From Podospora anserina (Eukaryota): a stretch of 64,000 nucleotides of DNA. The notes under the pieces were generated by a model that saw nothing but the letters and a program-made list of their open reading frames with translations, was not told the DNA's origin and searched no databases. Within the stretch, counting starts at the first letter, position 1, and each line of letters starts with the position of its first letter. A program made the position numbers and the translations under genes. The stretch is taken from positions 3,100,001-3,164,000 of the forward strand of contig CM030337.1 in NCBI GenBank assembly GCA_017654855.1, in the 5' to 3' direction. Below are positions 13,467 to 37,936 of the stretch, piece after piece.

Positions 13467-14756
13467 CGTGGCTGTTGGTATGGAGTCTGGCGAGTGAAGC
13501 TGGGGTTCGGAGCAGCTTGTGGCTGGATGGTCGGCCTGGAATCGCGATGAAATCTCAGGTTGGGTGTCGGTTTCAATCCAGTGTGCTTTGACACATGTCG
13601 TTCGACTTTTCTGTGGTGATGTCGTCACTGTATCGTGGAGTCTGCATGTGCGGTGTGAAGGTCAGAGCACGCACCGCCCAGAAAGTGGTGTCATCCCATC
13701 TTTCAGACTGCTGGGTAACTGAGCGTGGAAAGATGAGGCGAGGGCAGCTGGTTGAAATCACCGTTTTTCAAGTGACCACCGGAATTCCGAATTGTCTGTC
13801 GGACATCATGAAGAGGTGAATAAGAATGTGGAGATGATGATGATGGGCGCAGGAAGATTCAACGGCTGAAGGTGGAAAAGAAAACGATGAGGAACACGGG
13901 GAAAGAAATCGAAAAAGGCCAAAAAGTCAAGCCCAACAGAATGCCCGTCCTCGCTTCGAACGAGGCACCTCCAACGCCCACTATCCTTCCGCCGCGGATG
14001 AAGTGCCAGAAGGGTCCATGGGAAACAGTGCAGTGTGCTACACAATTACACCATGAGCAGTTCTGCCTGTAGAATGGAAGGTACTCAAAACCGCTACAAG
14101 TATTGACAGCAGAGCACGCTGCAGGCCCTTTTGTCTCCAGCAGAGAATGTGGAGGTTCGAGTAATTTGACACTGAGCAGTTTCCCAAACATATCCATGTG
14201 GTCTCTACTTGTTTCAAGTGAATCATTGACTTGGAAGTCGACCTTATGTCCGATGTTGTCCACATGCCTCCGTTACGATATGATGGCAATAGCAAAACTC
14301 CTGAAGGGTTCTATAAGCTCTTTACACACCCTGAGTTCAATTTGCTCGAGAACGGCCCCGAGTCACTGCTTGTTTTCTGCCAAGTTTTGGTCATTGCAGG
14401 ACTAACGCATGATTGTTGCGAGTTTTGAATGTACAGGCCACCACCAACCTCGCTTCTCTGTTCCAATCACTTCAACGCGAAATTGGACTTGGCTCAATAA
14501 TCTTTGGGACTATGCAACGCTCAATGTGTAAGCTGCAGTACACACCATACCTGAGTAATCTAGTCTCGTCCTGGCCAGCTAGGCCGCCGAGTTTCACTTT
14601 TGTACCTTGCCAAGATGTGGAGGTCAGTTGCTTTGATCTGACTCTGAGGACATGGCAATTTGTATATGAGTAAGGCTTGGACACCCTCTGCAGTTTTACA
14701 ATGAGGTTCCAGAAGAGTTGAAGACTTTGCCTACCAAGTCAACCTACGATCAAAAG

Positions 14757-19707: not shown

Positions 19708-20884
19708 TCGAGATCGCTTCTGTTTTGAGGAGGCAAGGAATTCGGGCTCTGGTAGATGTAAGTAGAATCTTTATCAACAGGTACGATCATCCTTCCCAAA
19801 TGGTGATATGGAACTGTAAAGACAGCTGCTCTTGAAGTGAACGACTAGACAAAAGAAGGTATCTATCAGATTCAGCATGGCGATTTGGTAATAGGTAGGT
19901 AAGTGGTAATGAATATGGGAGTATGAAAGAGTGGAGGAGAAAAGAAAAAAGAAGAAAAAATCAAGCCCAGACAGAGCTACCCAACCCTGTCTCGAACGGG
20001 GTAGCTCTCGACTGCCCAGTAGCCTTAACCCGTGGATGAAGTGCGAAAAGGGTCCCTGGGACACAGTCGAGCACCTTAACTAACTAGGCCATGGGCAATT
20101 TTATTGAAAAGAAGGTCTCCAATGCAGTGTATAAACCCCACCATGGCCCCTTTCTCTGTTATTGGGTCGCAAGAGGCCGTCTGCTCCCTCCTTCCCGGCG
20201 GTGATATAACATTGCCGGGCCCGGAGAGCACGCATTCGATGTGGGCAATTCAGACTTTTTCTTCCTTTTCCTCATGCGACTTGCTCCTGGACACGCGCCC
20301 CATAGACACCCACAAAGAAGCCATCCGAAGTAATTAGTTCTTCTCCGCCATTCTACAGCACCAATCTAGCCGGTTTTGGGGAGGATAGTACAGGACGGTA
20401 TTATGACCTATAAGTTTTGACCGCCCCTGTGCATCGTCACCTCAACTACTGTTGCCCGGGAGCTACATACGCGAAAGCTCCTGGGTAGTTGAGCCCTGAG
20501 ATTCAGTACCACCATGCGAAGTCCTGTTCAAGTGGTGGAATCTCATGACAGGTTCAAGTCTCCGCCAATACCGAGGAGGCTTCTTATTATATCTGGACCT
20601 CCCTCCTCTCCTTCCAATCTTAACCTTCCCCGTACTCTCTGACCTCAGTCAACCAACTACCCCCATCCTTGACATTATAACAGTTCGTTTTGAAAGTATG
20701 CTAACATCTCGCAATCACAACACCGCTAATACTCGTTATTTACAGGCTCATCTCTTCGGGGAGCAACCGTGCTACTGAACGAAACCAAACGGCCCCTTCA
20801 CTCCCGTATTCCAATTCGGGTGCATGTGGAATTGGGAATTGAGGATACAGAAAAGCGTGCTGGTAAGCGGTTTCGGGGCGAAAA

Positions 20885-21670
20885 TTGGGATTGGGCCGCG
20901 ACCGGATTTGGATAACACCGCGCTTTGAAGCGCCCGACGAGAGCGCAGAAACGGATTACGACGAGCCCGGCGGTCATAGCACCGCCAGCAACCCCCTCCA
21001 GCAGCGCCCACAGGTGTTGTACTCTGCGGTTGTTGGGACGATTAAAGTTCAACCGCGGACCGAAGCCCTGCAATTGCTGCGACGATCAGCCAACTGCCTG
21101 ACGTCGAAGAAGATGCTGTTCGTCTGGTGTATTGCGTTGATGATCCTCCGGCTACGCCTCACCCCAAGAGTTGGAAGGGCAGAGGTGTTTGTGTTATCCG
21201 ACAGCCAACAGGCACTCTCGATGTTGGATAGATGTCCGTTCAGGGCACCAGGGTTTACGCTGACGACGATGCCGTTATACATTCATTTGGCTGAACTCAC
21301 CAGTAAGCTTCAGGAGTTGGGTGGCCTCCTGACAATTCGTGGGTCCTTGGGCACAATCACAACTTTACTGTGCATCAGCTGGCAGAGGAAGTAGTCCATA
21401 TGGCATTTTCTTGATAGTATGTGGGAGTTACCAACACATCGGCATCGAGAAGGAAATTCCCCTATATAACCCATTATGCTGGGCAGATCTCTTGGCGCAC
21501 TTCAACAGTTTCGGGACAAGCATCCGACAGTGGATGTCAACATCAGCACCTCAGCATACAGACAAGCCCATAACAAGTGTTTGAGGCTGAAGAAGTTTCC
21601 TCGTCCCTGGGATTGGGCTCTGCATCACCAAATTATGGAGCTGAAGGAGGATTTGTTTCACATTATTTGA
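20885..21670 (+). pseudogene. RNase H-fold family paralog 1, frameshifted and internally deleted
   Basis: Across frames it reads EALQ/AATISQLPDVEEDAVRLVYCVD//ILRLRL...EVFVLSDSQQAL...PLYIHLAELTSKLQELG..TI/WVLGHNHNFTVH, colinear with the ORFs at 29323 and 35093. Shifts near 21074 and 21338; deletion junction near 21142. Boundaries are approximate. Confidence 0.8.
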
Positions 21671-22051
21671 GAACCTAGCTGGGGGACTCAGATGGGCGGT
21701 TGTGCGGAAACATGTCTTGGTGTGCTCATGAATCGTTGGAAAGTGTCGCGAAGTGTTTGAATGTGTTGGAGGGTGCTGGAGGATGTTGAAGCCATGGACT
21801 GTGGTTGCAAGTGGGGAAATGGTTGACAGTGTGTCGGAGAATGACGGAGAAATGTTGAAACATTTAGGTCACTGCAAGAAGGAATAAGGATGCTCTAGGG
21901 GACTGCATGTTAAGGAGGACCAAGTGAGCTGTCTGTGTCAAAGAACCTCAACAAGGTTAGGTAGATGTATACTGAGTAAGTGGTATTCACCGGTTACTAT
22001 CTCCAGATTTTTCGTCTCTTCTTCAACTACCAGTCTCTTAAAACAACCCCT

Positions 22052-22753
22052 CTACCCACCCGGCAGACACCTTTCTTCTACTCTCCCCCTTTCACAACCA
22101 CGCGGACACTCGCCCCTCACAAACTGCCACCCAAACAACACTTTACTCTGCTCCCTCCCCACCCCACCAAGCACCACCTCCGGGTCCTTATCCCTCATTC
22201 CAACGCCACTCCCAATAACCTCTTCACTCCCGATGTCCAACTGCCCCCATCCCAGTTCAATCAACTCTTTGATCGGAACCCCGTAAACGTACTCCCTAAA
22301 CCCTGCCCATCTCACCGCGGCAGCGCACATGGGGCAGCTTTCGGCGTTGGTGTAGAGTGTCAGGTCCTTGAATGCGGCTAGGGATTCGGCAGGTGTCATG
22401 TTATACGCAGAAGAGACAAAAAGAGAGGAGCAATTATTAATGGCGGCGATTTCGCCGTGCAAAGTTGGGTTTCCTATCCGGGAGTTACCGTTAGAGCCGG
22501 TGCAGATAAGTGTTCCTTGGGGGTTGGCAGAGGTGTGGTTCACGATGACGGTACCAAAGGCGGCGAAGGGGCAGGGGTGGGAGAGGGCGAGGGTGTTGGC
22601 TTGGTGGATCCAGTATTCGCGGGTGGAAAGGGGGATGGTGTCATCGTTGTAAGGGTTTGGGAGGGTGGGTGGTGATGCTGGGATGGAGGGGGTGCATGCT
22701 GTGATTGTTGGGAGGAGGAGGGACAATGAGGCTAGTAGCGATTGGCTTTTCAT
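22052..22753 (-). CDS. Secreted cytidine/deoxycytidylate (CDA-fold) zinc deaminase, guanine-deaminase/TadA-like
   Basis: MKSQSLLASLSLLLPTITA signal peptide; PFAAFGTVIV; NPTLHGEIAAI (HxE); LYTNAESCPMC (CxxC). Confidence 0.88.
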   Translation of the reverse strand: MKSQSLLASLSLLLPTITACTPSIPASPPTLPNPYNDDTIPLSTREYWIHQANTLALSHPCPFAAFGTVIVNHTSANPQGTLICTGSNGNSRIGNPTLHGEIAAINNCSSLFVSSAYNMTPAESLAAFKDLTLYTNAESCPMCAAAVRWAGFREYVYGVPIKELIELGWGQLDIGSEEVIGSGVGMRDKDPEVVLGGVGREQSKVLFGWQFVRGECPRGCERGRVEERCLPGG

Positions 22754-23067
22754 GTTTGGTTGGGTTGTGTGTGGGAGAGAAAGAAAGGTTAAGGCTGTGA
22801 TTGTGAATTGTGTGATGTTCCTGGATAGTTGGTGGTTGGAATGCTGACATCTTTGTTTCGAATTGGCCAGGACTTTTGGGTGCCACACCGTCTGTCTCAT
22901 TCCGTCAACTACACGCACGATGAACGAGCTTTATGATCACGAAAAGAGTGTCATCTCTGTATTTTATTAAATATGTAGCCAAATTTGATACCGGAAGATT
23001 GTTAATAAGGGTATACAGACGTTGCCGCCGCTCAATTCTCCCCCTTTCTAATGTTTTGTGTTTCCAT

Positions 23068-24105
23068 TCACGTGCCTCTGTGCAACGCGGCTGGCTGGCC
23101 GGCTGGCGGGGTGCCATGTGCACTTTCCAGCTCCCTTGGAGCAATCTCAGGACCGGGAGCTTCCGCCCTGCCCTCTATATCCCATCGGTCACTGCTCAAC
23201 TCGGCTGGCGCTTGCGTCTGTCCAAGTTCGTAAGTCGTCATTTGTGACTCCTTCATACCGTGGTGCAACTGTTGTTCGGGCTGGCCGGAGTAATAGTATT
23301 TCTCTCCAGGCCCAGAAACGACGGGTCCGGGCGGAGGTGTCCCTGCCTCAGTGACAGGTAATTCTGCTGTTGAGTCGGTACCGCTGCGGGCCAATCCACG
23401 ACGCTTCGTCCTCCAAAGCAAAAAGGCGCCAACCACGATGGCAATTGCCACCGCAACAGCACCGACCGCAATGCCGGCTATCGCTCCACTCGAGATGCCA
23501 CCGCTGGAAGGCTCCTCGGGCGCTGATGTGTTGGTCGGTCCTGGGTCCGAGGAAATAGCTGACGAGGGAAGGTCTGAGGGCTTCCATGCGAGCTGGATCA
23601 TGGGTGCATAAATATACGCCTGGGACCAGTTCTTGTTGGGGAGAGTCATCGGAGCTAGATTGATCTGGCTTCCGCTCTCGCATTGATATGTCGAAATGGT
23701 GGTGGCTCGAGCATTCGAGATGCAGGTTTGGCCGTTCTCGTTGTGGCACGCATAGCCCTCTGGGCAGCAGCCCACAAAGGTCTCTTCTGGCTCCATCCGG
23801 TACTGTACGCGCCAACCCTGAGAGGTGGCGCTGGCGGTGCATGCCGACACATAGCCCGCCGGGCAGTGAAGGCCGGGCGAGTAAAATCCCCAGCCGTAGA
23901 AGGCCGAGTTGGTTCTCGGAGCGTCTGTTGTCGTCGGCGGCCAGCAGTCGGCGTTATCCTGGACGTCTTCCGGCCCGCACCTCTGGCCCAACCAGCCCAC
24001 GTTGAACACGGTGTGATGGGCCGGTGTCCAGCATGCTTCCGGAGCTGTGAAGGTCGTGGTCAGATGACCGAGGATCTTTCGGGCTTCGTCGGTAAAGATT
24101 GACAT
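23068..24105 (-). CDS. Single-pass membrane protein (Cys-rich ectodomain, Ser/Thr/Pro linker, Mid2-like TM)
   Basis: LTTTFTAPEAC...FYSPGLHCPAGY...CCPEGYAC; TM GAIAGIAVGAVAVAIAIVVGAFLLW followed by RTKRR; ELP/EL repeats in the tail. Confidence 0.85.
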   Translation of the reverse strand: MSIFTDEARKILGHLTTTFTAPEACWTPAHHTVFNVGWLGQRCGPEDVQDNADCWPPTTTDAPRTNSAFYGWGFYSPGLHCPAGYVSACTASATSQGWRVQYRMEPEETFVGCCPEGYACHNENGQTCISNARATTISTYQCESGSQINLAPMTLPNKNWSQAYIYAPMIQLAWKPSDLPSSAISSDPGPTNTSAPEEPSSGGISSGAIAGIAVGAVAVAIAIVVGAFLLWRTKRRGLARSGTDSTAELPVTEAGTPPPGPVVSGPGEKYYYSGQPEQQLHHGMKESQMTTYELGQTQAPAELSSDRWDIEGRAEAPGPEIAPRELESAHGTPPAGQPAALHRGT

Positions 24106-25511
24106 CCTGTCTTGCTGCGAACTCGGACTTGTTGGTTCGGGGGATGAAGTGTTGTTTTGTCGTCGTCGAGTTGAAGACAAAAGAAACTGGGAACGCAATA
24201 CCGGTCGTCTTTGGGAGCCACTCCGCTTTTCATGGCGCGAGATTCAGCGGCCGGGAAGTCTAGCGAAGCGGCCAAGCCCGTAGGTCGTCAGGGTGGTCAA
24301 GTCTACGCTGGTCGAGACAGGGACCACATATCCAAGCTGTTGTTTATCGATTGGTTGGCGAGTCTGCACCCTTGCTAGTGTTTATCAGTCCATCCCGCTG
24401 ATTCGATCATTGAACCCGAGACCGCCACAGGGTGACCCGTCCGTGCATTTTAAGGTCGGCGGGCACGTGGGCTCGACGGGTACCCGGGATCGAGGCCCGG
24501 CGATGGCATAGTGCGCCTTCCAGCAGTAAGGATCCTGGTATGATCAACGAGGCGAAGATAGCAGCTTTTTTTCCACCTCCAGTGCAGGCCAGAGCCTCAG
24601 AGGCCTAGACCCTAGGTTTAGGGCGGCGCTGCAACGAAATGATGTCTCATAAGTTTTAAGATCGCCTGGGTTCCGGTAGTCAGTTGGCGCGGTAAATAAA
24701 AAAATGCAACCCTGAGATCCCCAAACTTGTTCCCCAGACACATGGCCCCCACGGCCGGCGCCGCGCCGGCTTCCCTTCTGGCCCACAAACACGCAATCCA
24801 GCCATCAAGAAACTCTTGTACAATCTGCGCAACATTGACAAAGCCTCTGCGATTGAAAAGGCTCCCAAGGGTAACGACAGCGAGGCCCCTTTCATCACCG
24901 CTTTTCCAAGATCAAGAAAGCCATACTCTGCAGGGCTTGGTGCTTCCACATCTTCTTATTTTAGAAGCCTCCATCGAAAAAAAAAGCTTGACTCGAGCCT
25001 GCTCGCTAAAGACATCGCTTAAAGTGAGCGATGTGACCAGCATTGGTGGAGGGGTCAAACCAGGATCGCCGATTGAAGGAAGTTCACCGCTCGAGGTCCA
25101 TAGCGAAAACTTGAGCAAATTCTGCATAGCTTGTGCAAGGATGCAGATATGCCGGAACCGGAAGTGCCATCGTCAACGGCGAGAACGCGGACGGGTTGTT
25201 CGTCGGTTGCTCAGGAAGTAAAGTAAACAAATCCGGGAAGGAGATGTATCTACTGCTCAGGGGTCACTCCTGTGTCGACGAAACCCTAACCCAGGCAACA
25301 CCAGCCAACAGCACCAACACAACACCAATTGCATCGTCCCAACAGCCAACCGCATCCACGCAAAACCCTGTGACACAGGGTTGATCCTTCCCAACCAACA
25401 GCCCTGAAAGATTCCGCCACTGTCACTTAACCAGCAACTCCCCCCCCGGTGGCGCTGTCGAATTGTTTACACACTCTTTCACTCATTGCCGTCAAGAAAA
25501 TTACCACCAAA

Positions 25512-26063
25512 ATGACACGCTCAATCCTCCCAACCTTCCCGCTCATCATCCTCGGCGTGATCGAGCCACTGATGCTGTACGTCCCCCATTCTACCCACCC
25601 CTCTAATTGCCCAAATCACTCACAATTCCCCAGCCTCGAAGCTTACCGTGTCGGCATCATCAACCCTGGCGCCCAGCACTACTTCACCCGTCAACTCCCG
25701 CCCGACTTGCTCTACACCACCAAGACTACTCAGCCTCCCGAGTTCTCTCCCCAGGCCGAAACGGTCACCCTCCAGCTGGTCAACGTCTTCCTCCTCCTCG
25801 CGGGCTTGGCTGTCGTGTGCTGCTTCAGCAAGGATAAATGGACCGTCAAGGGCTACTGCGTCGTGGTCGGGCTGGCGGATTATGGCCATATCTGGTCCAT
25901 CTACAAGGGTTTGGGCGCCGAGGCGTTTTGGGAGTTTGGCAAATGGAACGACTTGGTTTGGGGCGGGGTGTTGGCGTCCGCGTTGTTGAATTTGGTGAGG
26001 TGGGGGGTTGTGTTTGATGCTTTCGGGAGGTTGAAAGATGGGAAGAAGGTGAAGACGAAGTGA
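25512..26063 (+). CDS. Small fungal integral membrane protein of unknown function
   Basis: ATG 25512; probable in-frame intron 25577-25633; four hydrophobic segments; LADYGHIW motif. Confidence 0.75.
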   Translation: MTRSILPTFPLIILGVIEPLMLYVPHSTHPSNCPNHSQFPSLEAYRVGIINPGAQHYFTRQLPPDLLYTTKTTQPPEFSPQAETVTLQLVNVFLLLAGLAVVCCFSKDKWTVKGYCVVVGLADYGHIWSIYKGLGAEAFWEFGKWNDLVWGGVLASALLNLVRWGVVFDAFGRLKDGKKVKTK

Positions 26064-26407
26064 TTGAGAGCTGGGGGCGGTGGAATCATTTGACGCTATG
26101 GTCTGGTCGTCAGAGGTAGCTTAAAGTCAAGAAACCAAGCAATGAGTTGTCCTCGGACTTCACAAATTGTCTGGTGCTCAGCCATTGATTTGCGATATCT
26201 CGGATCCCATTGTTACCTCAATGTCACCAGGCAGTCGGCTCGGTGATGCTCGGACAAAGGCCGACAGGGGTATCGGAGGTACGTACCTCCGACCATTCCG
26301 TAATCAACAACTTTATCTTGACTTCATGTCAGCCTCAACTCCCATGTTTTTTGCCTTTTTGCCTTGCATCGTTCATCATACCATTCATACTAGTTAGTAC
26401 ATCCAGA

Positions 26408-28309
26408 ATGGCAACGCAGACACAAACCGTTATCGTTGCACCCCAATCTGCACACACCAACCCCTCCAACAACAACCTCATCACACTTTCCAGCCCTAAA
26501 GGACCACCTGAGAATGATAGCCACCCCGACGTTTCCATGTCCAAGCGGGACATCACCCTCCTCCTAACACCCCTCTGCCTTTCTGTTCTCTTGTCTTCTC
26601 TCGACCTGACGATCCTCACCCCCTCCATTCCCTCCATCGTGGCCGACTTTGCCTCCCCACAAGGCTACATCTGGATCGGCTCTTCCTTCATCCTCGCCCA
26701 CACAGCCAGCACACCCATCTGGGGCGCAGTGTCCGACATCTTTGGCCGCAAACCCATCATGCTTTTATCACAGGCCATCTTCTTCTTCGCAAGCTTGCTA
26801 TGCGCCCTAGCAGAGAACTTGCACTCCCTAATCATCGGAAGAGCATGGCAAGGGGTAGGCGCGAGTGGGATGGGGATGATGGTCAATGTGATAATTTGTG
26901 ACTCGTTCAGCTTGAGAGATAGGGGGTTGTATCTCGCGGTAACAAGCGGGGTGTGGGCGTTGGGGAGTGCGATTGGGCCGGTGATAGGTGGTGTGATGAG
27001 CACCAGGTTGAGTTGGAGGTGGTGTTTTTGGATAAACCGTCAGTTTTGTCACTTGGGCTTTCTTCCTCCACAGAATCACACTAACAAATCCATAGTTCCC
27101 ATCGGTTTTCTAGTTTTCTTCACCATCCTCATCTTCCTTCCACTCCCATCACCGCCCAAGACCCAGATCCTGACCGGGCTCAAAGCTCTGGACTGGTCTG
27201 GCTCGCTCCTCATTATCGGTAGTGCCCTGATGATCCTCCTGGCCCTCGACTTCGGCAATGTAGTACTAGCCTGGTCTTCCCCCACAGTCATCAACCTCCT
27301 CGTCTTTGGCGTCCTGACCCTGTTCCTCTTCTTCTTCAACGAGTGGAAGTTAGCCCCCAACCCAATATTCCCCGCAAGGTTATTCCCCAATCTCTCCACC
27401 ATCGCTGCCTACGGCGTCTTCGCCTTCGACTCGTTCGTTTTCATTGGACTGGCGTATTATCTCCCTCTCTATTCCCAATCCGTGCTTGGAGCCAATGCGC
27501 TCACGTCGGGAGTCCACCTTGTCCCATTGATCGTCTCGTGTTCTTTATCGGCGGCGTTTGCGGGGGTGGCTATCCAAAAGACGGGGAGGTATCTCCCTGT
27601 TATGTATGCCGCGCAGGTCTTCCTCATGCTTGGAGTGGGGTTGTTCGTCAGCCTTGACTTTGCGGAGCCAGATAATCTCGGGAAGTTGTTCGGGTACGAG
27701 ATTCTGGCTGGAGTAGGAGTGGGTATGAACATCGAGGGGCCGATTCTGGCTGCGCAGGCGGCGGCGAGCGAGCTTGATACTGCGGCGGTGATTGCGGCGA
27801 TGGGGTTTGCGAGGTCGATGGCGACTGCGGTGTCGATTGTCGTTGGGGGAGTGATCTTTCAGAATGGAATGGACGGGCGGAACCGTGGTCTGGTTGAGAA
27901 ATTGGGAGGTGATATCGCTAATTGGTTTGGAGGGGGAGAAGCGGCCGGGAGTATCGAGAGGATTGGATTGCTTGGTGAGCAGCAACAGCAGTTTGTGAGG
28001 GGCGCATATTTTGAGTCACTGAGGTTGGTTTGGATCATGGTATGTGGTTTTTTATCTGTTTGTTGGTGTTTGGGAATTGATCAGCTGACAAATGAACAGT
28101 ATGTCGCGTTTGCTGGCCTTGCCACTGTCCTCACTTTGTTGGTTAGAGGGCAAAGGTTGAGCAAAGAGCACAAAGACGTCGTTTTGGGTGTGGAAAGAGG
28201 TCGGACTACGCAGGGGCAGCTACCGGTACAACTGGGACCTGTGCCTGAAGTTAGATCGGGAGAGGGGAGTGCGGCGGAAATCAGGCTGCGGAGGGCTGCA
28301 GACATATGA
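26408..28309 (+). CDS. MFS drug:H+ antiporter (DHA2/14-TM) efflux pump
   Basis: LSSLDLTIL, WIGSSFIL, SDIFGRKP, LIIGRAWQGVG, WRWCFWIN(LP); in-frame introns 27039-27095 and 28040-28099. Confidence 0.92.
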   Translation: MATQTQTVIVAPQSAHTNPSNNNLITLSSPKGPPENDSHPDVSMSKRDITLLLTPLCLSVLLSSLDLTILTPSIPSIVADFASPQGYIWIGSSFILAHTASTPIWGAVSDIFGRKPIMLLSQAIFFFASLLCALAENLHSLIIGRAWQGVGASGMGMMVNVIICDSFSLRDRGLYLAVTSGVWALGSAIGPVIGGVMSTRLSWRWCFWINRQFCHLGFLPPQNHTNKSIVPIGFLVFFTILIFLPLPSPPKTQILTGLKALDWSGSLLIIGSALMILLALDFGNVVLAWSSPTVINLLVFGVLTLFLFFFNEWKLAPNPIFPARLFPNLSTIAAYGVFAFDSFVFIGLAYYLPLYSQSVLGANALTSGVHLVPLIVSCSLSAAFAGVAIQKTGRYLPVMYAAQVFLMLGVGLFVSLDFAEPDNLGKLFGYEILAGVGVGMNIEGPILAAQAAASELDTAAVIAAMGFARSMATAVSIVVGGVIFQNGMDGRNRGLVEKLGGDIANWFGGGEAAGSIERIGLLGEQQQQFVRGAYFESLRLVWIMVCGFLSVCWCLGIDQLTNEQYVAFAGLATVLTLLVRGQRLSKEHKDVVLGVERGRTTQGQLPVQLGPVPEVRSGEGSAAEIRLRRAADI

Positions 28310-29322
28310 TGAGGCTCTGGAGGTGGTACGCTCTTCACAATACCTCAGAGGCCCCGGGCTTTGAATTGGGTAGAAGCCGCAGCCGCCTGAGAGAGCATGG
28401 GAGCAAATCATCAGCCAATCGGAGTGGTTTTTGCATTGGTGGGTCGATTTGACCGGCCTGCTGGGCTCTGTCAAGTCGTCATCCGTCCAACAATTGCCAG
28501 CTGAGCTTTCTGATGTACCACGTCAGATCATTTTGCAGCATCATCATTCTCTTTTGCAGTGAATGTCACAGATCTGTAATATTGTTACAGTTGGATATTT
28601 GACAGTCATGACTCGAGGCTCGGCCTCGGGATTACCCTCCATTTCTGGCACGGTCACTCTGTGGGTAAGATTCGTGATTGTATAAAGCTAGCTTCACCTT
28701 TTTGACGCTCCGTGTCCTTCCTGTCCCATCCATTTAATTACCTACCATACCTTCATCAACAAATATTCGACTCTCTTAATGAAATGTGTTCAAGGTCCAT
28801 CATTCCAATAACTTGCGTATATACTACATCATGCCTCACTAATGTGGAAGGAGGTAGGTGAGCTCCTTCCCTCCATGGAGGTCCCACTTCGGCAAGCGGG
28901 CGTGTTCTCTTGTTCTGTTGAATAGGGAAATGGCCCTCACAACTTCATTGAATTCCTCTGGTTAGGCACGCATCATCAACGAACACCCACTTTTCTTCTC
29001 CAACAGCCTCCCTGGATAGAGGGTAGCTAGCGGCAGATGACTAAGTCCGCTGATGCATGATTTGTTTCGAGCTGTTTTAGGATCAACTTCCATCACTCAA
29101 ACTTTCAACCTTTTGACCTTTTGACTTTCCAGAAAGTCCATTCAATCCTGTTCGTCTGAGTCACATCTCAGCTAAACACGAGGTTACATTGCCTCACCGC
29201 GGTTGCTATCCCTTGTTTACCGTGCAGGACTGCCTCAGAATGACTGGATCCTTCGTTGAAAGAGGTTCATTAGTACCGGATGTTTTTGCTAATGTATTTT
29301 CATTTATCCAGATGGACAAGAT

Positions 29323-30288
29323 ATGCTTTCGTTAAAGAAATACCGGACGCCGATAAAAAGGACATTGGACGACCTTCAAACCGACGAAGCCCAAGTCGGA
29401 ATCAGACAGGCCAAATCAGATGATCTTAGTAAAAAATACCCTTTTCTACTCCGGGATGGCAAAGAGGACGAAGGACCGATATTTTATCCGATGCCTCCAA
29501 GCCCAAACTTCCTGCAGCTATTTTCGAATCACTACCCGAAGCTGTTAGCCCGAATCGAAGACCAGCAAATGAATCGGGAGGCTGCACTGGCATATGCTGC
29601 CTATATTGAAGCATTGCCACGGAAAGAAGGAGACATTGTTCGGTTGATCTATGGCATGGATGGTTCAGCCACATTGCAGTTCGACTGGGAACCCGTCCCA
29701 GGCTCCTTTGCTATATGTCTAGATGCAAGGATAGACGACGGACATTTTGTTGGAAAATCACAGGGGTTCTTTATCGATGAGGTCCCATCAATCCACTGGG
29801 CCGAGCTCATGGGAATCACTGAAGCAGTGCATCAGACCGTTCTTCGCCGCCGTAAGGCTATACCGTCCCGGGGTGAGCTGTACATACTCACTGACAGCGC
29901 TCAAGTTCTCGAGTATTTGCAACGATATCCACACGAAGTCCCGGTTAACAAGCTGGCAATGGCGCCGGTGTACGATTATTTGGTGAAGCTATCAGAAGAG
30001 CTGGATAAGATGGGATGGGTGTTTACGATTGCTTGGGTGCCTGGGCACCGTCACCAAATCAGATGTCACATCAAAAGTGATAGAAAGGCAAGAAAAACCA
30101 GAAGGGAAGGTTTTAAAACCATTAAGAAGCTACTCGACTGGCCTGACACAATCCCAACACCACTGGCTATGTCGGATGCTACCTATTTTGCGCCGATGAC
30201 GCATAGTTCGATATGGCCTTCCTGCATGCCAGGAGCATGGAGGCTATCCGCAATTTACCACCGCTTTTGCATATATGGATCTTTTTAA
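29323..30288 (+). CDS. RNase H-fold family paralog 2 (complete acidic core; C-terminal segment out of frame to 30403)
   Basis: YGMDGS, WAELMGITEA, YILTDSAQVL, AWVPGH, HIKSD equal the RNase HI-type D-E-D-H-D set. Branch site plus acceptor ending at 29311; possible exon 1 at 29240-29264 with a weak GTTCAT donor. May be a recent pseudogene. Confidence 0.8.
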   Translation: MLSLKKYRTPIKRTLDDLQTDEAQVGIRQAKSDDLSKKYPFLLRDGKEDEGPIFYPMPPSPNFLQLFSNHYPKLLARIEDQQMNREAALAYAAYIEALPRKEGDIVRLIYGMDGSATLQFDWEPVPGSFAICLDARIDDGHFVGKSQGFFIDEVPSIHWAELMGITEAVHQTVLRRRKAIPSRGELYILTDSAQVLEYLQRYPHEVPVNKLAMAPVYDYLVKLSEELDKMGWVFTIAWVPGHRHQIRCHIKSDRKARKTRREGFKTIKKLLDWPDTIPTPLAMSDATYFAPMTHSSIWPSCMPGAWRLSAIYHRFCIYGSF

Positions 30289-30299
30289 GCCATCAGAGA

Positions 30300-31560
30300 C
30301 GTATAATATCCTGTACTAGTTTTACATTAATGCGGTTGAGGGTGGGGTAGAGACGCCCAAGGAAATTCGAATTAGGGGGGAAGAGCTACTAAGAATCAGA
30401 TGAGAGGTGCTTTAGAGTCGGGGCTGGAAACTGAAGCCTGAGGGAGCTGGAAGTATAAAGACTCCATAGGAAGGTGGAAGCAAATTATGTTAGGGGCAGC
30501 TAAGAGTTTTAACGGGATCCCAAACGTCTACCTAGGATAGGTATGTCTTAGTAGTTAGGGAAATTGAAGATCGGCCACCTTCCCGAATGGACCGGATAAA
30601 CTTTTGTTAAGTATCCGTCTATTACTATCTTTAACTTTTGTCTTTAACTGATTTAATAACTAATAGTACTAGCATTAAACCCAATCCCGTCTTGGGAGTG
30701 GAAATAACTCTGGACTTTCTTTAAAGGGTTAATATTTTATATTTGTAAATCACGGAAGATACTAACCTAATCATCAATGATGGCCAACCCCTCCTGTTAT
30801 AACTTAATAACCTCACTGCCCGATAAATAACCACTTGCTAAGCTTCCATCATAGTTTTCAAAGGTAAAATGCTAAATAATCTTTTAAACTCTTCCAAGAG
30901 GTGACCGGAAATTTTCCGGAAGGGAAAGTATAGTGCATTTGCAATATGCCTATCTAAACTTCGAGGACACCGGGGATTATTTTTTATAAAGGCACTATCT
31001 TGAGAGTAGATTGAGGTGATGTCAATGGGTGACCCTGGGCACCAGTAGGTTCTTGTTTTGCGGTTAACTATTCCGTCGGTCGAGGTCAACTCTACATAGG
31101 GATTCAGAAATTGTGGTAATATCCTACGTTTTCGGAAGAGGGATCCTAACTACACACCTTATCACTAAGGTAGTTGATCTTAATACCGGTCTATAGGTAC
31201 CTAGTGTCTCTCTCGAGGAGTTGGGCTAAAGAGGATTCGAGCTGATAATTTCCTGGATACCAGGATATAATTACCAGATTATTATTGCACTCCCCTCCAC
31301 TGCTGTTGGCAACCAACTCGCTCTTTACACCATTTAGATATCAGCCTTAGCATTATAGTACTTGAAGGCTTCTCACTTTACGCCCCGCTACCTTCTTGAA
31401 ACACAAATAGACTTGGGGAACTGTCTATGTAATCTTAGAGACGGTACCTAAGGGTGTATGATGTAAGTACATATGCTCCTGCAAAGCCTTTTGTATGCTC
31501 AGAATAGACATCTCTTGATGATTTAAATCGAGCATTTCACGTACCAAATAGCTATTTACA
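30300..31560. other. AT-rich, TpA-enriched degenerate block consistent with RIP
   Basis: For example TATTACTATCTTTAACTTTTGTCTTTAACTGATTTAATAACTAATAGTACTAGCATTAAA (about 30620-30680); no credible long ORF. Judged by eye. Confidence 0.6.
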
Positions 31561-32355
31561 GTATTGATAGGTAATCTGTGCTAGATGGAAGCGATTTGTC
31601 TCTCAGGGAACTGGACAAGTAGATGCGGGTATTGTTAGAGGAGGTCCTGTTTTTGAAATAAGGAAGTGCAGACCTACGCCAGAGGAACTCTCGATAACAG
31701 CAGCCCTGACTATGTTGTCGACAATGGAATTGAGCGCGCCTTCTAGTTTTGCGTGGACAAAATTTTATAACCACAAACACTCCCTCTTTCAAACAGCTGT
31801 TTTTCTTTGCAACGCAGTCAACCAAAATAAACCAAGAGATCGAAGAAAATGGGTAAGCAACTAATTCATTTTCGATACAGACTCCTCGCCAGTAAGCGTT
31901 CGACTACGCTACCAGCAAGCGTTAATTACAACGACGGTACTCGCTCAGATGACATCAGCTACGCTTCGAGGCGCTCAGGACTGCTTGTTTTATTCGCTCG
32001 GCGACAAGCCGTAACCTATCCGAGCTTTTGCATATGTTAGTATTTGTTGCTAACATTCTATTTTTGAAAGCTACTCCTTACATACAAATACCGGCGGACC
32101 TTAAACCCCCATGGAAATGTAAAATCGAAGATGTCGAGAGATGAGGCTGGTCCTGCCATTCTTGAAGATATGGACAGCTATTTCCTGTCCAAGCGCTTTA
32201 AGAGAAGCAATAAGGGTGATGTCCGCTTGTTATGGTGTCTGGAAATGTGCCGAGCACATCATCCTAATAGCCATGTGCTAGGCGGAACAACCGTTGGATA
32301 GCCAATAAACTGCTGACCGAAAGCTCCTTGTCCCAGGTACGGTTCTCCACTGGCA

Positions 32356-32815
32356 CTCTGATGGATTAGACAGTGACGACGTGACATTAGGCTTGGATGG
32401 TCTGCCTTGAACTCTTGCACGGCCCTGGTACCGCTTGCTTCCAAGACAGGCCATATCGAATTGATCTTGAGGGTCTTCAGCGTAGCAGAGGTCGGAGAGG
32501 AAATTGTGTTCTCGCCATCTCAGCTTCATCCAGGCCCTTCCTGATAGCCAGCACTTCCAGTCGCTGAAACTCTACTCAGCTTCGCTTGAAGCACTCAGAC
32601 TTGTCCGTTTGCGAGCGAACAAATTTGTTCCGAAGCAAGCCTCCTCTTGCCTGCAACCAAAGACTTTCGAAACCCGGTTCTGGATATTGAACAATGCAAA
32701 CGCCATTAGCGCAGTAAGCAGCATATTAAACTGCACTGTTGATCGCATAAACTATGTTGATGAGGATATCTCCGACCCTGGTAAGCGCGTCGATCTGAGA
32801 GGGGTCGGCAAATGT
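32356..32815 (-). pseudogene. RNase H-fold family paralog 4, heavily degraded
   Basis: Minus-strand fragments in order: IDALTRVGDILINIVYAINSA*, AFAL, FQRLEVLAIRKGL, NSIWPVLEASGTRAVQEFKADHP, LSNPSE. They align to paralog motifs IEALPRKEGDIVRLIYGMDGSA, AFAV, IQWLELMAITEAV, NSIWPILHAR..AVEDF, LFKPSE. Confidence 0.7.
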
Positions 32816-33361
32816 GCTATCGAGACCAATCTGTCGGTTACATCCTCACCAATAATAGTTAGACCTGGTCCCAATGCCTAGGGTACCGCCGTGTGATTGT
32901 GCTAGGCGGAGAGATCTTCGGTAGGCACTATTTTCACTCTGGTCGCCGTCGGTGAATGGCTGACTTAACTTATGCATTCTGCTTCCACTGCTGCGCCTGT
33001 AGATCTTCTACAGGCCTCTCGGGTTGTGTAGCACTAGAGACCATTTAGGCTGACAGAGAAATACTGACGCCTGAAAATCCCGTGTCTATCAATGCCGGGC
33101 GAGGTTAGACAGTGTCACTTTTCTTGCTGAGCACCGCCGGACGCTGTCTTTGAATGGTGTAAGCGATGATCATGACCATATTGCAAAGAGCGTCAAAAAC
33201 ACCGAAGAAGGCCAGGCAGCAGCACACTGTTGAGCTTTCAGTCAGCATAAATACTGGCCAAGTCCACACCCTTCCATTCTCACCCAGCACCCCTCATCAC
33301 TTTCACCGACGGTGCCATCTGCATACCTACCTCTTCGCATTCTACCCACCCATCATTCACC

Positions 33362-33931
33362 ATGAAACCCTCCACCGCCTTCGCCCTCGCCGCCCTCTGC
33401 ATCAAGAGTTGCGTGGCCGACTTCTGGATCTACGAGGCTGGCGGATTTGGCGACATTGTCCCTGTCACGTACTTCCGTTTCTACCACGACCCTCCCAAGT
33501 GCGGTACAACCGGCAATAACAACGGACAAAACTATCTCCCATACGATGATGTCAGCAAGAGAAAGGTAAATGTCTCGTCTCTGTGGCCGACTGTGAAGAT
33601 GTATTGACTGACGATAACTTCAGGGCATTGCCTGTGACGGGAACGGTTGCGAGGGTGGAAACCCCAACGAGATCACCCGTTTTGAGATGAATGTGGACTG
33701 GGGACACTACAGTACGTCGCTGCCGTCCAACCATGAGTGCTACTGGGCGATTTCTGACATGACTTGTTTGCAGCTATTTACAAGGACCGTGGCTACAGGA
33801 TGTACGACAAGAAGAACAACGTTGTGGGGCAGTGTCGTCCTGATAGATCCAAGAGCTATCTTTGTGTTGGCACCGGGCTTCCTGATGGGGCTAGTGTCTT
33901 CCACTGCACTACGTCTGTTGACAAGTTCTGA
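33362..33931 (+). CDS. Small secreted cysteine-containing protein (about 150 aa, effector-like)
   Basis: Signal MKPSTAFALAALCIKSCVA; introns 33566-33623 and 33712-33773 give ...PPKC...GIACDGNGC...HYTIYKDRGYRMYD...GQC...YLC...FHC...KF*; six Cys in the mature part. Confidence 0.85.
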
Positions 33932-34952
33932 CAGGAACGATGAGGTTGGGCAGGACATGTGAGAAGGGTTTTGAAACTGGCGTGATGGCCTGAATGTGAA
34001 AGGGAATTTGAACAGTTGTTGTTGTTTTAAGTATTAGTCGACGGGAACCTGTAAGCAAAGAAAATGAGAAACAACAAAAATAGCACTGCCTTGAAATATC
34101 GGTTCGTTTTTGATTGACTGCTCAGTTTGAAGAAAAATCTTGAAGACGCAGACAAGCCGTTAGAGTGACAAGTTGACTCGATCAAATAGCCATCGTGGCC
34201 AGGGTTGAATTTGTGAGACGCAGCGAGTGATTACGTTGCATCTTCGAGGGTTGGGCTGGTCCCTGCGCTAGGTACCTGAGTGCAAGGACCGAGGAGCAAT
34301 ACAACAATAAGCAACCAGTCAGTGGTGCAATTAGCAGAGGTGTTGGCTTTCACACTGGGGTCCCGGAGCTACTCGTTCTTGGAACATACTGGGGAATGCT
34401 CTGCAGAGAACAGTGAAGCCTGGGATCACATGGGGCGACCAACGCAAGGTCCTCTTGGAGGCAGAAATTGCTTGTTTTTTGGGTGACCTTTTCTATAGGA
34501 TCTGCACTTCTTTCCCTTCAAACCCAAAACCCTCATAATGCAACCGATGCAAGAGTTGTTACATGTTGACATTGTGTAATATGCATCATTCAACATGTGA
34601 GGAGCATCGTGACAAACTTGGGGCACAGGAGGCCGACGGTTCAATTCCGAAGTCAAGCACCATTTTGTCACGCCCTTGGGCAACATGTCCCCCACTGATA
34701 TGCCCTTTATAACCTCTGTAAACTGTGCTCCTTGGTCGGGATATTTTCCAGAAGCAACATGGAGGCCACTGCCTTCCATCTCATCATTTCATGCACATGG
34801 CTGTCACGTCGTAGGGGAGGTTTTCAACTCGACGAGGCAACCGCATCAAGGCCGGTTAGCTATGCTTACAAGCATTCTCGTTACATAGTCTACAGAAATC
34901 AAAGTTCGGCGTATCTCCCAGGTGCCCGTGTGTATCCGTGAGTAGTCCTTCT

Positions 34953-36045
34953 TTATCCCCATCTTCGCCACATAATCCTTAAGAGATCCTCCCTTCGACA
35001 CCGAACTTGCTCCGCAGTCTCTGTCCCTGCTTCAACCGCGGCAATGTAGTACTCATACAGCACTTCGTAGATTTCTGATGGTTTGAAAAGGCTCAGATAA
35101 GGGTAGGCATTCTCGAAGTCCTCGACAGCTGCTGTGTCTCTTGCATGCAGGATTGGCCATATATGGAGTTGTGTTTCGATGGTGCGAAGTGCGCGATTGG
35201 CTTTGGAGCTGTCGCAGCCTGATCGCGAAGCTCATGCAGCCTCTTTTGACATTGCCTCCGTAGATTCCGTGATTTCTTGTCGCTTCGCGCATGACATGTG
35301 ATGTGGTGGTTGTGTCCTGGTATCCAGGCGATAATCAATCCGATGCCCCTTTGGTGCAACTCTTGTGATAGTGCTACCAGATAGTCATAAACCGGCGTCA
35401 AGATCAATTTCTCGCGAAGCGTGCTGTTAGGCTCCCTCTTCAGAAAACTCAGCACATTGGCGCAATCGCTGAATATGTAGAGTTCACCACGGCGGTGGGA
35501 AGTTGATAGTCGTAACCTCAGCACAGTCTGGTGTACCGCTTCCGTGATCGCCATCAGCTCTAACCACTGAATGGACGGTGCCCTTTTCACAAAGAACCCC
35601 TGGGCTTCTCCACAGAAATCCCCCTCTTTTGTTCGTTTGTCCAAACAAACTGCAAATGCACCATACACATCATTCATGTCAGAGTGACACTCAGCTGAGC
35701 CATCAACCCCATACACAACTCGCAAAAAATCTCTATTGTCGCGTGGAAGCGACAAAACATGATCGGCGTATGCCAGCGCTTTGTCTCGGTCCGCGTCGTG
35801 GTCCTCAATTCGCGCCAGGAGTTGCGGCAGCTCGTTCGCAAACCGCACAGGGGTCGATGGGAGCGGGAGAAATGTCGGCATTTCGTCTTCCTTCCCATCC
35901 CATAACAGGAATGGGAAGCTCTTCCGCGGATTATCCAAGGGTTCGATCTTTCCGATGGTGGATCGGACGCTGTCGCTCTGGAAATCCTTCCGCGATCTTT
36001 TGGAAGGGTTTCGCAGGTTTTCTAGCGACGTGGCAGCCTGGGCAT
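34953..36045 (-). CDS. RNase H-fold family paralog 3 (complete acidic core; stop at 35093 after a frameshift, ancestral frame runs to 34953)
   Basis: YGVDGS, WLELMAITEA, YIFSDCANVL, AWIPGH, HARSD; branch TGCTAAT and TAG acceptor at 36048-36046; upstream exon not resolved; extra AT at 35159-35164 shifts the frame. Confidence 0.8.
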
Positions 36046-37484
36046 CTAATAAGACACAGATAGATTAGCATTTAGTCTTGTTCATTAGGCTCTCCAACTA
36101 GCACAACAAACGATGTATTTAAGAAGACAGATTGAGCCACAGTGCTGAATGCATCATGACTCTGCGATTGTTTTCCAAGCCTTGGTTTCACAAATCGGTG
36201 CCTGAAGGGACAGAGGTCGATTGCCGGGAGAAAAAACACAAAATCAAAGATAATCAATAAATAGTAAACACGAAAGTTACCCATGTTGGAATTTGCCTGT
36301 TGGGTCCGTGGTGACGTGGATGCGACAGATGACCGTGACGAACTGTGAAGTAGGTGGCGGGTTTGGCGAACATGCAGAAGGCCAGAAAAGATTCCAGGCA
36401 GGAAATTAGCTGGATGGGTTCGATAGACGGCACTGGCAACAGATATTGCTCTTTCCGGAAGGCGACCATGCCACAAACGTGGGTGCCTGTCGGCAACGTG
36501 GGACCACCATTGTGGGAAGGCACGACGGAGTTGCTTCCACATGACCAATTATCACCTTTGGATTCCACTGACCACCCAAACCACTCAAGTGAGCAGACAA
36601 TTCAGAACGGGGGATGTAGTATATAAGCCGAATTTCTGGACATCCTTTCAATCTGGTGCTCTTTTCCTTCCATGGCCGCAGCTTCAACAAACAAGGGACA
36701 AGCCAACAAACAAATCCATAACCACCCCCTCAAGAGCTTTGTCTGGGTACCTATCCATGAACATGGGCAAGTATCACAACACAATTTAGCTAAGGTATCA
36801 CCACATATGCTCATTGCGCAGCCAGGCCTTTCCAGTATATGCAGGCAATTGGTGGATACAAGGAATACCACAGAGTTAGAATGCTGAAATTAGATATTTA
36901 AACGCCCAGGCAGACCAACAAAGCAATGCAAAACAAGAGCAGGACCAGTGGATGGAGCATGGAATATAAATATATGTTGGTAAATATAGGTATGCATGAC
37001 TACTATTGTGAAAGAAGGGATGGTCAACTGTGAACTGGTCAGTCAGGATGACTCTGAAGCAAGGGGCGCTGGGTTAAGGTAGGTAGATAGTTACCAACTG
37101 ACTCCGAAGTGGAATGGTATGACAGCGAATCAAGTTCTTACTTCTTGATGACAACCTGCAAATGCTGGATCTAGCCATATGTCTTACATTTGTTGAAGAC
37201 TTCGCTTTCACTTAGAATGTGTGTATGTGACCGAGAAAGACAGTTGTGTGTCGGATGAGCAAAGTCCAAACTCAAAGATTGCAGTCTTACCAGAGGAGCA
37301 CAGGTTCGGCCGTGCAGGTTGATAATGATAATAGAACAAAACTTTAACAGGTAACCCCAAGTTACCTAAAATGCATCCTAAAGCTGTTACGAAGAAGTTG
37401 GGTCTTTGGGTCGCTTGAGTAAGATAAGCCGAAGACGCGAATACAAAGAAACTCAGCTGAAAGGAAGGTCAAAAAATACCCAAT

Positions 37485-37690
37485 CTAACGAATCCCAGCC
37501 CACCTTGCAATCTGATCATCCGAGAAATCATCCGGACCCTAACCTTCTTCAAATAGGTATCAAACTTGCAAGCCACGGTAAACACCAGCTTCAGATGTTC
37601 ATATGTCATGCTTTTCCCCTGGAACTTGGCCAGCTGCCTCGCCGTCATAATAGGGTTCCGAATTTCAGGTCCATTCGAATGATCGTCGCA
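37485..37690 (-). pseudogene. Relic 3' end of a fungal AAA+ ATPase gene (lid region)
   Basis: NGPEIRNPIMTARQLAKFQGKSMTYEHLKLVFTVACKFDTYLKKV, then after a shift DDFSDDQIARWAGIR*. Matches the recalled NGRQIRN..TARQLA...HL...F..YL...D..A...R C-terminus; no Walker motifs upstream. Confidence 0.7.
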
Positions 37691-37936
37691 GACTCAATTT
37701 CATCTTGTTTGTGAAAGTTTTACTAAGAATAGCAATGTTAAAAGGGGTAGATCTCCATCTTCTCTCCTATACCATGAGTTGGAAGAGAGGAAGAGATCAA
37801 TGCTAAAATATATGTACCAAGAAGTGAACATCATCAAGCCCATCCACAGTCACCATCATGCCTTGAGTCGGCATTCAATTGAAACCAACAGTCTATAACC
37901 CCATATCATCGTCCAACGCTGTCACTAACACGCCAG

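Follow-up and report, generated by a model that had tools for sequence, protein, structure and literature searches.

We analysed a cluster of genes and gene relics in the fungus Podospora anserina that encode stand-alone proteins related to type-1 ribonuclease H (RNase H). The cluster lies in a stretch of 64,000 nt (GenBank assembly GCA_017654855.1, contig CM030337.1, positions 3,100,001 to 3,164,000 of the forward strand), which we call the window and whose own numbering is used for all coordinates below. The copies were located by tBLASTn with copies A and B and ten relatives as queries, together with a six-frame search using a hidden Markov model (HMM) of the family. Five family copies were found inside the window by the HMM search, all of them in a single 15-kb neighbourhood and none dispersed:

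29323–30288, forward strand: copy A, a 321-codon open reading frame (ORF) from the first ATG to TAA, comprising a disordered N-terminal region (as predicted) and a type-1 RNase H core.
35093–36045, reverse strand: main exon of copy B in the annotated frame, comprising the N-terminal region and the RNase H core.
30929–31319, forward strand: copy C, remains of an RNase H core spread over three frames and interrupted by several stops.
21067–21414, forward strand: copy D, a relic in three pieces and two frames.
32358–32462, reverse strand: copy E, a weak relic recognisable only in its C-terminal motif (NSIWPVLEASGTRAVQEFKADHPSL).

Read from stop to stop, the ORFs of the two long copies extend over 29293–30288 (+), with 331 codons and the first ATG at 29323, and over 35093–36064 (−), with 323 codons. 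Copies A and B are paralogs sharing 153 of 321 aligned residues (48% identity, E = 2e-102). All the motif strings by which the original prediction, made from the DNA letters alone, had called the ORFs at 29323 (+) and 35093 (−) clear paralogs are present in their alignment. That prediction had counted four members, overlooking relic C. Its decayed copy near 21 kb (+) proved to be relic D, recovered as three collinear pieces by the family HMM. Of its decayed copy at 32.4–32.8 kb (−), a 35-residue match to the C-terminal motif stands, while the N-terminal piece is marginal and the copy as a whole remains weakly supported. The proposed local amplification agrees with what we found, the copies having been born, and dying, locally.

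The three relics differ in how much of the core they retain. Relic C lies 0.6 kb downstream of A, in tandem with it, and is recognised at E = 8e-14 against copy B, to which it is nearer than to A; the sequence WIPGYNYQI replaces WIPGHNHxI. Relic D consists of HMM pieces at 21067–21147, 21140–21340 (E = 2.7e-11) and 21337–21414. It has lost about 56 profile positions to an internal deletion, the region of the catalytic Glu among them, and the remaining motifs are altered (DGS to DDP, PGH to LGH, AD to AE). The match that defines relic E runs over 35 residues from 32462 to 32358 (−) (NSIWPVLEASG...), with E = 0.007 in the window and 2.7e-5 in a 1-kb target; its candidate N-terminal piece (32839–32645, −) reached only E = 0.04 in a 1-kb target.

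Fold, active site and family membership

AlphaFold2 models were obtained for copy A, on the basis of a 20-sequence alignment, and for a full-length relative, P0012. In both, the N-terminal 70–80 residues are predicted to be disordered and are followed by a mixed α/β RNase H fold with a five-stranded sheet. The core of A spans approximately residues 80–290, with predicted local distance difference test (pLDDT) values of 82–97 by block and one loop at 65. A Foldseek search gave at least 380 matches in the PDB at E ≤ 1e-3, with RNase HI from bacteria and archaea and RNase H linked to reverse transcriptase (RT) at the head of the list; the best 50 were all RNase H chains or RT–RNase H (E = 1.4e-8 to 8.6e-7). 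Comparison of the P0012 model by VIA placed Halobacterium RNase H1 first (4e19; Z = 13.8, with a root-mean-square deviation (rmsd) of 2.2 Å over 131 residues), followed by the RNase H of foamy-virus RT (Z = 13.0), E. coli RNase HI (12.6) and human RNase H1 (12.4). The RNase H of human immunodeficiency virus (HIV) scored Z = 12.3, and each of the 16 chains at Z ≥ 8 was an RNase H domain. The earlier assignment of an RNase H fold was borne out by the Foldseek search with the predicted model, in which RNase HI chains came out on top, and by the leading VIA score; as far as models can settle it, the type-1 RNase H fold of the family is settled.

At the level of sequence, the Pfam RNase_H profile (PF00075) gives 16.3 bits for A and 16.1 bits for B, the gathering threshold being 25.8. 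Of the relatives, 17 were compared with this profile: 14 reach E ≤ 0.1, and four exceed the threshold (P0010, 33.1 bits; P0015, 28.8; P0017, 25.9; P0027, 39.8). A sequence profile search of the PDB had gammaretroviral RNase H domains as its top matches, the best at a non-significant E of 0.17.

The catalytic D/E/D/D set named in the original prediction is kept in both long copies, as D123, E171, D201 and D263 in A (P0001 numbering) and as D121, E169, D200 and D262 in B (P0002 numbering). In the family alignment the columns of E171 and D201 are near-invariant and that of D263 is invariant; the first Asp, in the DGS motif, falls outside the conserved columns listed. The Glu and the last Asp align with motifs of murine leukaemia virus (MLV) RNase H in a profile alignment that is not significant as a match. 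Around the last Asp the family motif reads PGH-x-H-x(4)-H-x-x-[AS]-D, with H252, H254 and H259 in A and H251, H253 and H258 in B. The replacement of the usual Asn (G-N-x-x-A-D) by His, also part of the prediction, held up both in the profile alignment to MLV RNase H and in the near-invariance of H259. One distant Penicillium protein keeps the classical motif, as GNQTAD. By homology, the ancestral protein most likely acted on RNA:DNA hybrids, cutting their RNA strand.

An exhaustive phmmer search of 1.84 billion representative proteins returned 23 proteins at E ≤ 1e-3, with lengths of 102–437 aa. Named members come from Thermocarpiscus, Apiosordaria, Cercophora and Podospora, mostly Sordariales. 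Word-index homology searches yielded two relatives among 1684 candidates and five among 4670, and a search for longer relatives (766–2185 aa) found none among 3945 candidates, which is weak evidence by the search's own rating. Pattern searches identified two family loci among 592 matches in metagenome contigs and no relative among 18 matches in viral contigs. In a protein atlas, the whole protein matched generic RNase_H clusters only, and the C-terminal part matched nothing at 0.8 or above.

Members share a common architecture, with an LK.P.KR motif in the N-terminal part and an H..IW.VLH motif in the C-terminal part, followed by a helical tail. Full-length relatives consist of the disordered N-terminal region, the RNase H core and a C-terminal four-helix domain of about 85 residues, which in the P0012 model occupies residues 311–391 at pLDDT 83–93. 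Compared with the PDB as part of the P0012 model, not alone, this helical domain gave generic helical matches only, near Z = 5. In two proteins from European Nucleotide Archive (ENA) assemblies, P0020 and P0038, the RNase H core is followed by three extra tandem copies of an HDVEGH..AAD active-site helix motif, with linkers rich in Ser and Pro between them.

The family thus shares with the type-1 enzymes (E. coli RNase HI, archaeal RNase H1 and human RNase H1) the same fold (Z = 12.4–13.8, rmsd 2.2–3.6 Å over 131–144 residues, Foldseek probability 1.00), the catalytic set of four acidic residues and the histidine of PGH. It differs from them in that A and B fall below the Pfam threshold, in the His that stands for Asn and the extra His that gives PGH-x-H, and in the four-helix domain added by full-length members of what is a tiny, lineage-restricted family. 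Eukaryotic RNase H1, moreover, is a housekeeping gene conserved across eukaryotes, whereas the present family amounts to 23 representatives in 1.84 billion. It also lacks the N-terminal hybrid-binding domain of that enzyme, Pfam showing only RNase_H in A, B and 17 relatives. The database entries of P. pseudocomata, Cercophora samala, Apiosordaria backusii and Thermocarpiscus australiensis are members of this family, and the Sordariales entries carry automatic names only ("RNase H type-1 domain-containing protein" or "hypothetical protein"). The available parts of the literature contain no functional or evolutionary description of the family, and those of a Podospora repeat paper do not mention RNase H. 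We regard the family, made up of type-1 RNases H without RT and with a C-terminal domain of their own, as real and uncharacterised.

Lost tails, splicing and RIP-like changes

Neither of the long copies in the window encodes the C-terminal helical domain. The features that bear on this loss, on the gene structure of A and B and on the composition of the DNA around the relics are the following:

30220–30400, forward strand: decayed tail of copy A, where the match to the family tail is picked up in two further frames (FLHARSMEAIRNL..., then ...FKPSETYNILY*FYINAVEGG...).
29270–29311, forward strand: possible intron end upstream of copy A, with a branch-point-like gctaat and then a cag acceptor, at a position homologous to the intron end of B.
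36281–36284, reverse strand: putative 4-nt coding first exon of copy B (ATGG), followed by GTAAC.
36043–36280, reverse strand: intron of copy B, with its GT donor at 36280, a branch-point-like gctaat and an AG acceptor at 36047–36046.
35159–35164, reverse strand: frameshift site of copy B, where the window reads CCATATATGGCC and the family frame requires CCATATGGCC, a 2-nt TA insertion right after HNSI.
34956–35162, reverse strand: out-of-frame tail of copy B, 69 open codons equivalent to the first part of the C-terminal helical domain.
30001–32000: AT-rich tract around relic C, resembling the product of repeat-induced point mutation (RIP), with a GC content of 0.40–0.43.

In copy A the tail is interrupted by two frameshifts and one in-frame TAG, the first shift lying just past SSIWP. 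In copy B the reading frame comes to a stop 22 codons after the frameshift, and this truncated end is common to the orthologue of P. pseudocomata, the hypothetical protein P0004 (QC762_607777), to which the product of B is 99% identical. An RNA contig of another strain (run X22, 34989–35237) spans the frameshift site without a gap. Behind it the tail is still open: 64 of its 69 codons align to the tail of the relative P0035 at 77% identity with no stop, and P0035 as a whole aligns to B in two frames, first over 35716–35159 and then over 35162–34971. The two frameshifts are independent, and both fall just after the conserved SIW motif, a few codons apart. The C-terminal domain has thus been lost twice, independently.

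Three runs were taken as RNA on account of GT..AG joints in neighbouring genes; no run is recorded as RNA. All three have low-depth contigs over B, with one spliced joint, and near-zero cover over A. The joint comes from a contig of run X18 (depth 5.2), which connects 36281 to 36042 and skips 238 nt; the junction at 36042 lies 3 nt inside the canonical AG, and the frame is kept. Copy B shows weak transcription and is spliced. In the annotated orthologue P0004 the protein starts with MDAQ..., a point at which the window has no ATG. Copy A shares with B the end of the intron (gctaat and AG acceptor) at the homologous position. This end of A has no RNA support, and a search for the upstream exon of A gave a chance-level match only (28662–28679, E = 1.1). 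The absence of RNA cover over A, C, D and E was not counted as evidence; the DNA run X15 likewise leaves 20000–21802 uncovered.

In a maximum-likelihood tree, A, B and their closest relatives form one clade (support 100/99), inside which the Cercophora samala protein and P0035 join B in a group that leaves out A (87/77). Given this grouping and an identity of only 48%, the duplication that produced A and B is old, and the tree, at moderate support, makes the split appear older than the divergence of Podospora and Cercophora. The fast turnover proposed in the original prediction does not fit an old duplication of this kind.

Copy A varies among assemblies. The identical 321-aa protein (P0028) is called on seven contigs of other assemblies and P0030 on four. 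Elsewhere copy A appears as a pair of 118-aa and 159-aa pieces, on four contigs each, the 118-aa piece stopping where the window has CAG. This allele would carry a premature stop. Five of its six residue changes (P109L, S125L, A178V, D285N and C326Y) correspond to single CpA-to-TpA or TpG-to-TpA changes, and CpA to TpA is the context preferred by RIP. The split allele may therefore have been lightly affected by RIP, which perhaps spilled over from the adjoining RIP-like tract. Further related assemblies contain A in pieces, as P0032 and P0033 on one contig and as P0034 and P0006, which start at an internal Met. A further candidate for a RIP-mutated A, P0008 from a Logan contig, was rejected: its residue differences, 40 of 40, are due to C-to-T changes in every dinucleotide context, so that it looks like an assembly of bisulfite-converted reads and not a natural allele, and it was not counted as RIP.

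As the signature of RIP in the window itself we took an excess of TpA, a depletion of CpA/TpG and a composite index above 0, a combination found at copy C and its flanks only. Within the tract, TA/AT is 1.05–1.26 and (CA+TG)/(AC+GT) is 0.83–1.10. In a scan from 19 to 39.5 kb the composite index was positive (+0.18 to +0.42) in 30501–31500 and 31001–32000 alone, against −0.05 in 30001–31000 and −0.70 for the whole window; the scanning windows over A, B and D were negative.

Neighbouring genes and strain differences

According to Pfam, the window ORFs around the copies are ordinary fungal genes, including major facilitator superfamily (MFS) transporters, a deaminase-like ORF, an AA9 gene, a P450 gene and others. 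The deaminase-like ORF (22055–22930, −), located between relic D and the other copies, contains a cytidine/deoxycytidylate deaminase zinc-binding domain (E = 3.9e-12) and a MafB19-like deaminase match of 26.5 bits, just under 27; its N-terminus is hydrophobic and resembles a signal peptide (MKSQSLLASLSLLLPTITA). Between relic E and copy B, two adjacent ORFs (33251–33962, +) contain cysteines, the first of them with a signal-peptide-like start; to judge from their sequence, the pair may be a gene for a small secreted protein with an intron, and it has neither a Pfam match nor RNA contig cover. The ORF at 2159–2755 (+), which lies some 18 kb away from the closest of the RNase H relics, encodes a HeLo domain (prion-inhibition and propagation; E = 2e-22), known in fungi from proteins of cell death and incompatibility. 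The window also contains a direct repeat of about 130 nt with 75% identity (13904–14029 and 19938–20067), which is unrelated to the RNase H copies.

Signs of differences between strains were seen at both ends of the cluster. The stretch 20000–21802, which includes relic D, has no contig cover in X15, a DNA run of another strain, and contigs of X15, X20 and X22 diverge from the window at 22639 with an identical loose end. It seems that the strains differ structurally over 20000–22640. At the other end, the region of B and its upstream sequence (35225–37936) holds 35 of the 40 differences listed, out of 141, between the window and a 40,854-nt contig of another strain. Several of the differences in this region are common to RNA contigs of the three runs; the distribution was not used as evidence.

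Origin and fate of the copies

With moderate confidence, we interpret the cluster as the remains, in this genome, of a degenerating, lineage-specific family of stand-alone RNases H with five copies. A full-length member consists of three parts, namely the disordered N-terminal region, the RNase H core and the C-terminal four-helix domain. Copies A and B are old paralogs that retain the catalytic core as long ORFs, each having dropped the C-terminal domain through its own frameshift after SIW. Copies C, D and E are wrecked, C within the RIP-like tract, and RIP is a plausible agent of the decay. In some assemblies copy A shows CpA-to-TpA changes including the presumed premature stop. The copies present here probably have little or no remaining function.

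Several observations weigh against this interpretation. The tails of A and B are broken at almost the same place, and such near-identical break sites could reflect selection for tail-less forms rather than decay. The roughly 65-codon tail of A carries three lesions versus none in its 321-codon ORF, which hints that the tail-less core was under selection for some time. Strain differences in B comprise seven synonymous and eight non-synonymous changes (15 among the differences listed), fewer non-synonymous changes than neutral decay would leave, in a small and partial sample. A and B themselves lie below the Pfam RNase_H threshold. Finally, the RNA contigs do not measure the level of expression.

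In a first alternative, A and B function in their shorter form and loss of the C-terminal domain was selected twice, for example as the shedding of a regulatory or targeting module, with only C, D and E dead. The independent frameshifts, each only a few codons away from the SIW motif, and the contrast between the lesion-free core and the damaged tail of A speak for it, as do the transcription and splicing of B and the sharing of its truncation with another species of the complex. Against it stand the nonsense allele of A in some assemblies and the fragmentation of A in other related ones (P0032/P0033, P0034 and P0006). The open tail of B, still 77% identical to that of its relative, means that this frameshift may simply be recent, and within the complex the species have diverged too little for the ratio of non-synonymous to synonymous rates (dN/dS) to be useful. 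We consider tail-less function unlikely.

The copies might, alternatively, be leftovers of mobile elements, either RNase H fragments of non-LTR or long-terminal-repeat (LTR) retrotransposons whose RT has been erased or the gene of an undescribed element. An origin of this kind would account for the presence of several copies, their decay and the RIP-like composition at one of them, as well as for the RIP-type changes in alleles of A. The best PDB sequence matches are to gammaretroviral RNase H, albeit at the non-significant E of 0.17, and a reading of the secondary structure revealed no obvious basic protrusion in the model, as in retroviral and archaeal-type RNases H. The structural comparison is neutral in this respect: scores of retroviral and retrotransposon RNases H (MLV, foamy virus, HIV and Ty3) tie with those of the cellular enzymes, so the fold of the models does not separate a cellular from a retroelement origin, and the domestication put forward in the original prediction is neither favoured nor disfavoured by it. 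The PGH...AD layout of MLV RNase H aligns as well, again without significance.

The surroundings of the copies nevertheless point away from a mobile element. No RT, integrase, gag, transposase or endonuclease domain was found in the 140 window ORFs of at least 110 aa, and the 23 relatives are all of 437 aa or less, in keeping with the original statement that no RT or integrase lies near the copies; the failure to find longer relatives adds weakly to this. On the 4.3-kb metagenome contig of one relative, none of the seven flanking ORFs had a Pfam match. Likewise, the stated absence of LTRs agrees with our searches: neither LTR-like repeats nor repeats resembling terminal inverted repeats (TIRs) flank the copies, including in a self-BLAST of the window; no search aimed at poly(A) tails was made. 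No direct repeats were found in 28000–37500, where the inverted matches correspond to the coding homology of C to B alone. Unlike the RNases H of retroviruses and retrotransposons, the family has no RT fused or nearby and no terminal repeats. Its genes have introns, with homologous spliceosomal intron ends in A and B and splicing of B in RNA, and its specific N- and C-terminal parts are conserved among members. The confinement of all copies to one 15-kb neighbourhood, without dispersal in the window, is a further point against mobility. On balance, an origin as mobile-element debris seems to us improbable.

Still less credible is an active, fast-evolving nuclease family engaged in genetic conflict (antiviral or anti-transposon defence, allorecognition or meiotic drive) with birth and death driven by an arms race, as the original prediction had suggested: the clustering of paralogs with relics, the catalytic residues kept in A and B, the intact core ORF of A beside its wrecked tail, the narrow and patchy distribution and the many strain differences over B and its upstream region among those listed (40 of 141, of uncertain distribution) would fit it, but both long copies lack the conserved C-terminal domain, some assemblies have a premature stop in A, the split between A and B is old and not recent, RNA cover is low or nil in the three RNA assemblies, no NLR, HET or other recurring partner gene lies beside the copies or beside the relative on the 4.3-kb contig, and the available parts of the literature show no tie between such a family and conflict systems. 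We found no positive evidence for a role in conflict.

A broader scenario is a long shot. In it, the full-length ancestor, with its His-rich motif at the active site, would be an undescribed fungal nuclease for genome defence or for the control of R-loops or retroelements, its helical module would be regulatory or targeting, and Podospora would be either losing the system or, by truncating it twice independently at the SIW site, making deregulated, tail-less nucleases.

On present evidence the locus provides no new defence or conflict system, and its wider importance is accordingly limited. If the degeneration of the family is confirmed, it would offer a clear example of a small lineage-specific gene family dying in a RIP-bearing fungus, in which old tandem paralogs have lost the same domain independently, relics lie in RIP-like DNA and one copy is intact or stopped depending on the assembly. 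The analysis further delimits an RNase H family, uncharacterised and without RT, that has a C-terminal domain of its own and an Asn-to-His replacement near the active site; this family is directly open to biochemical assay.

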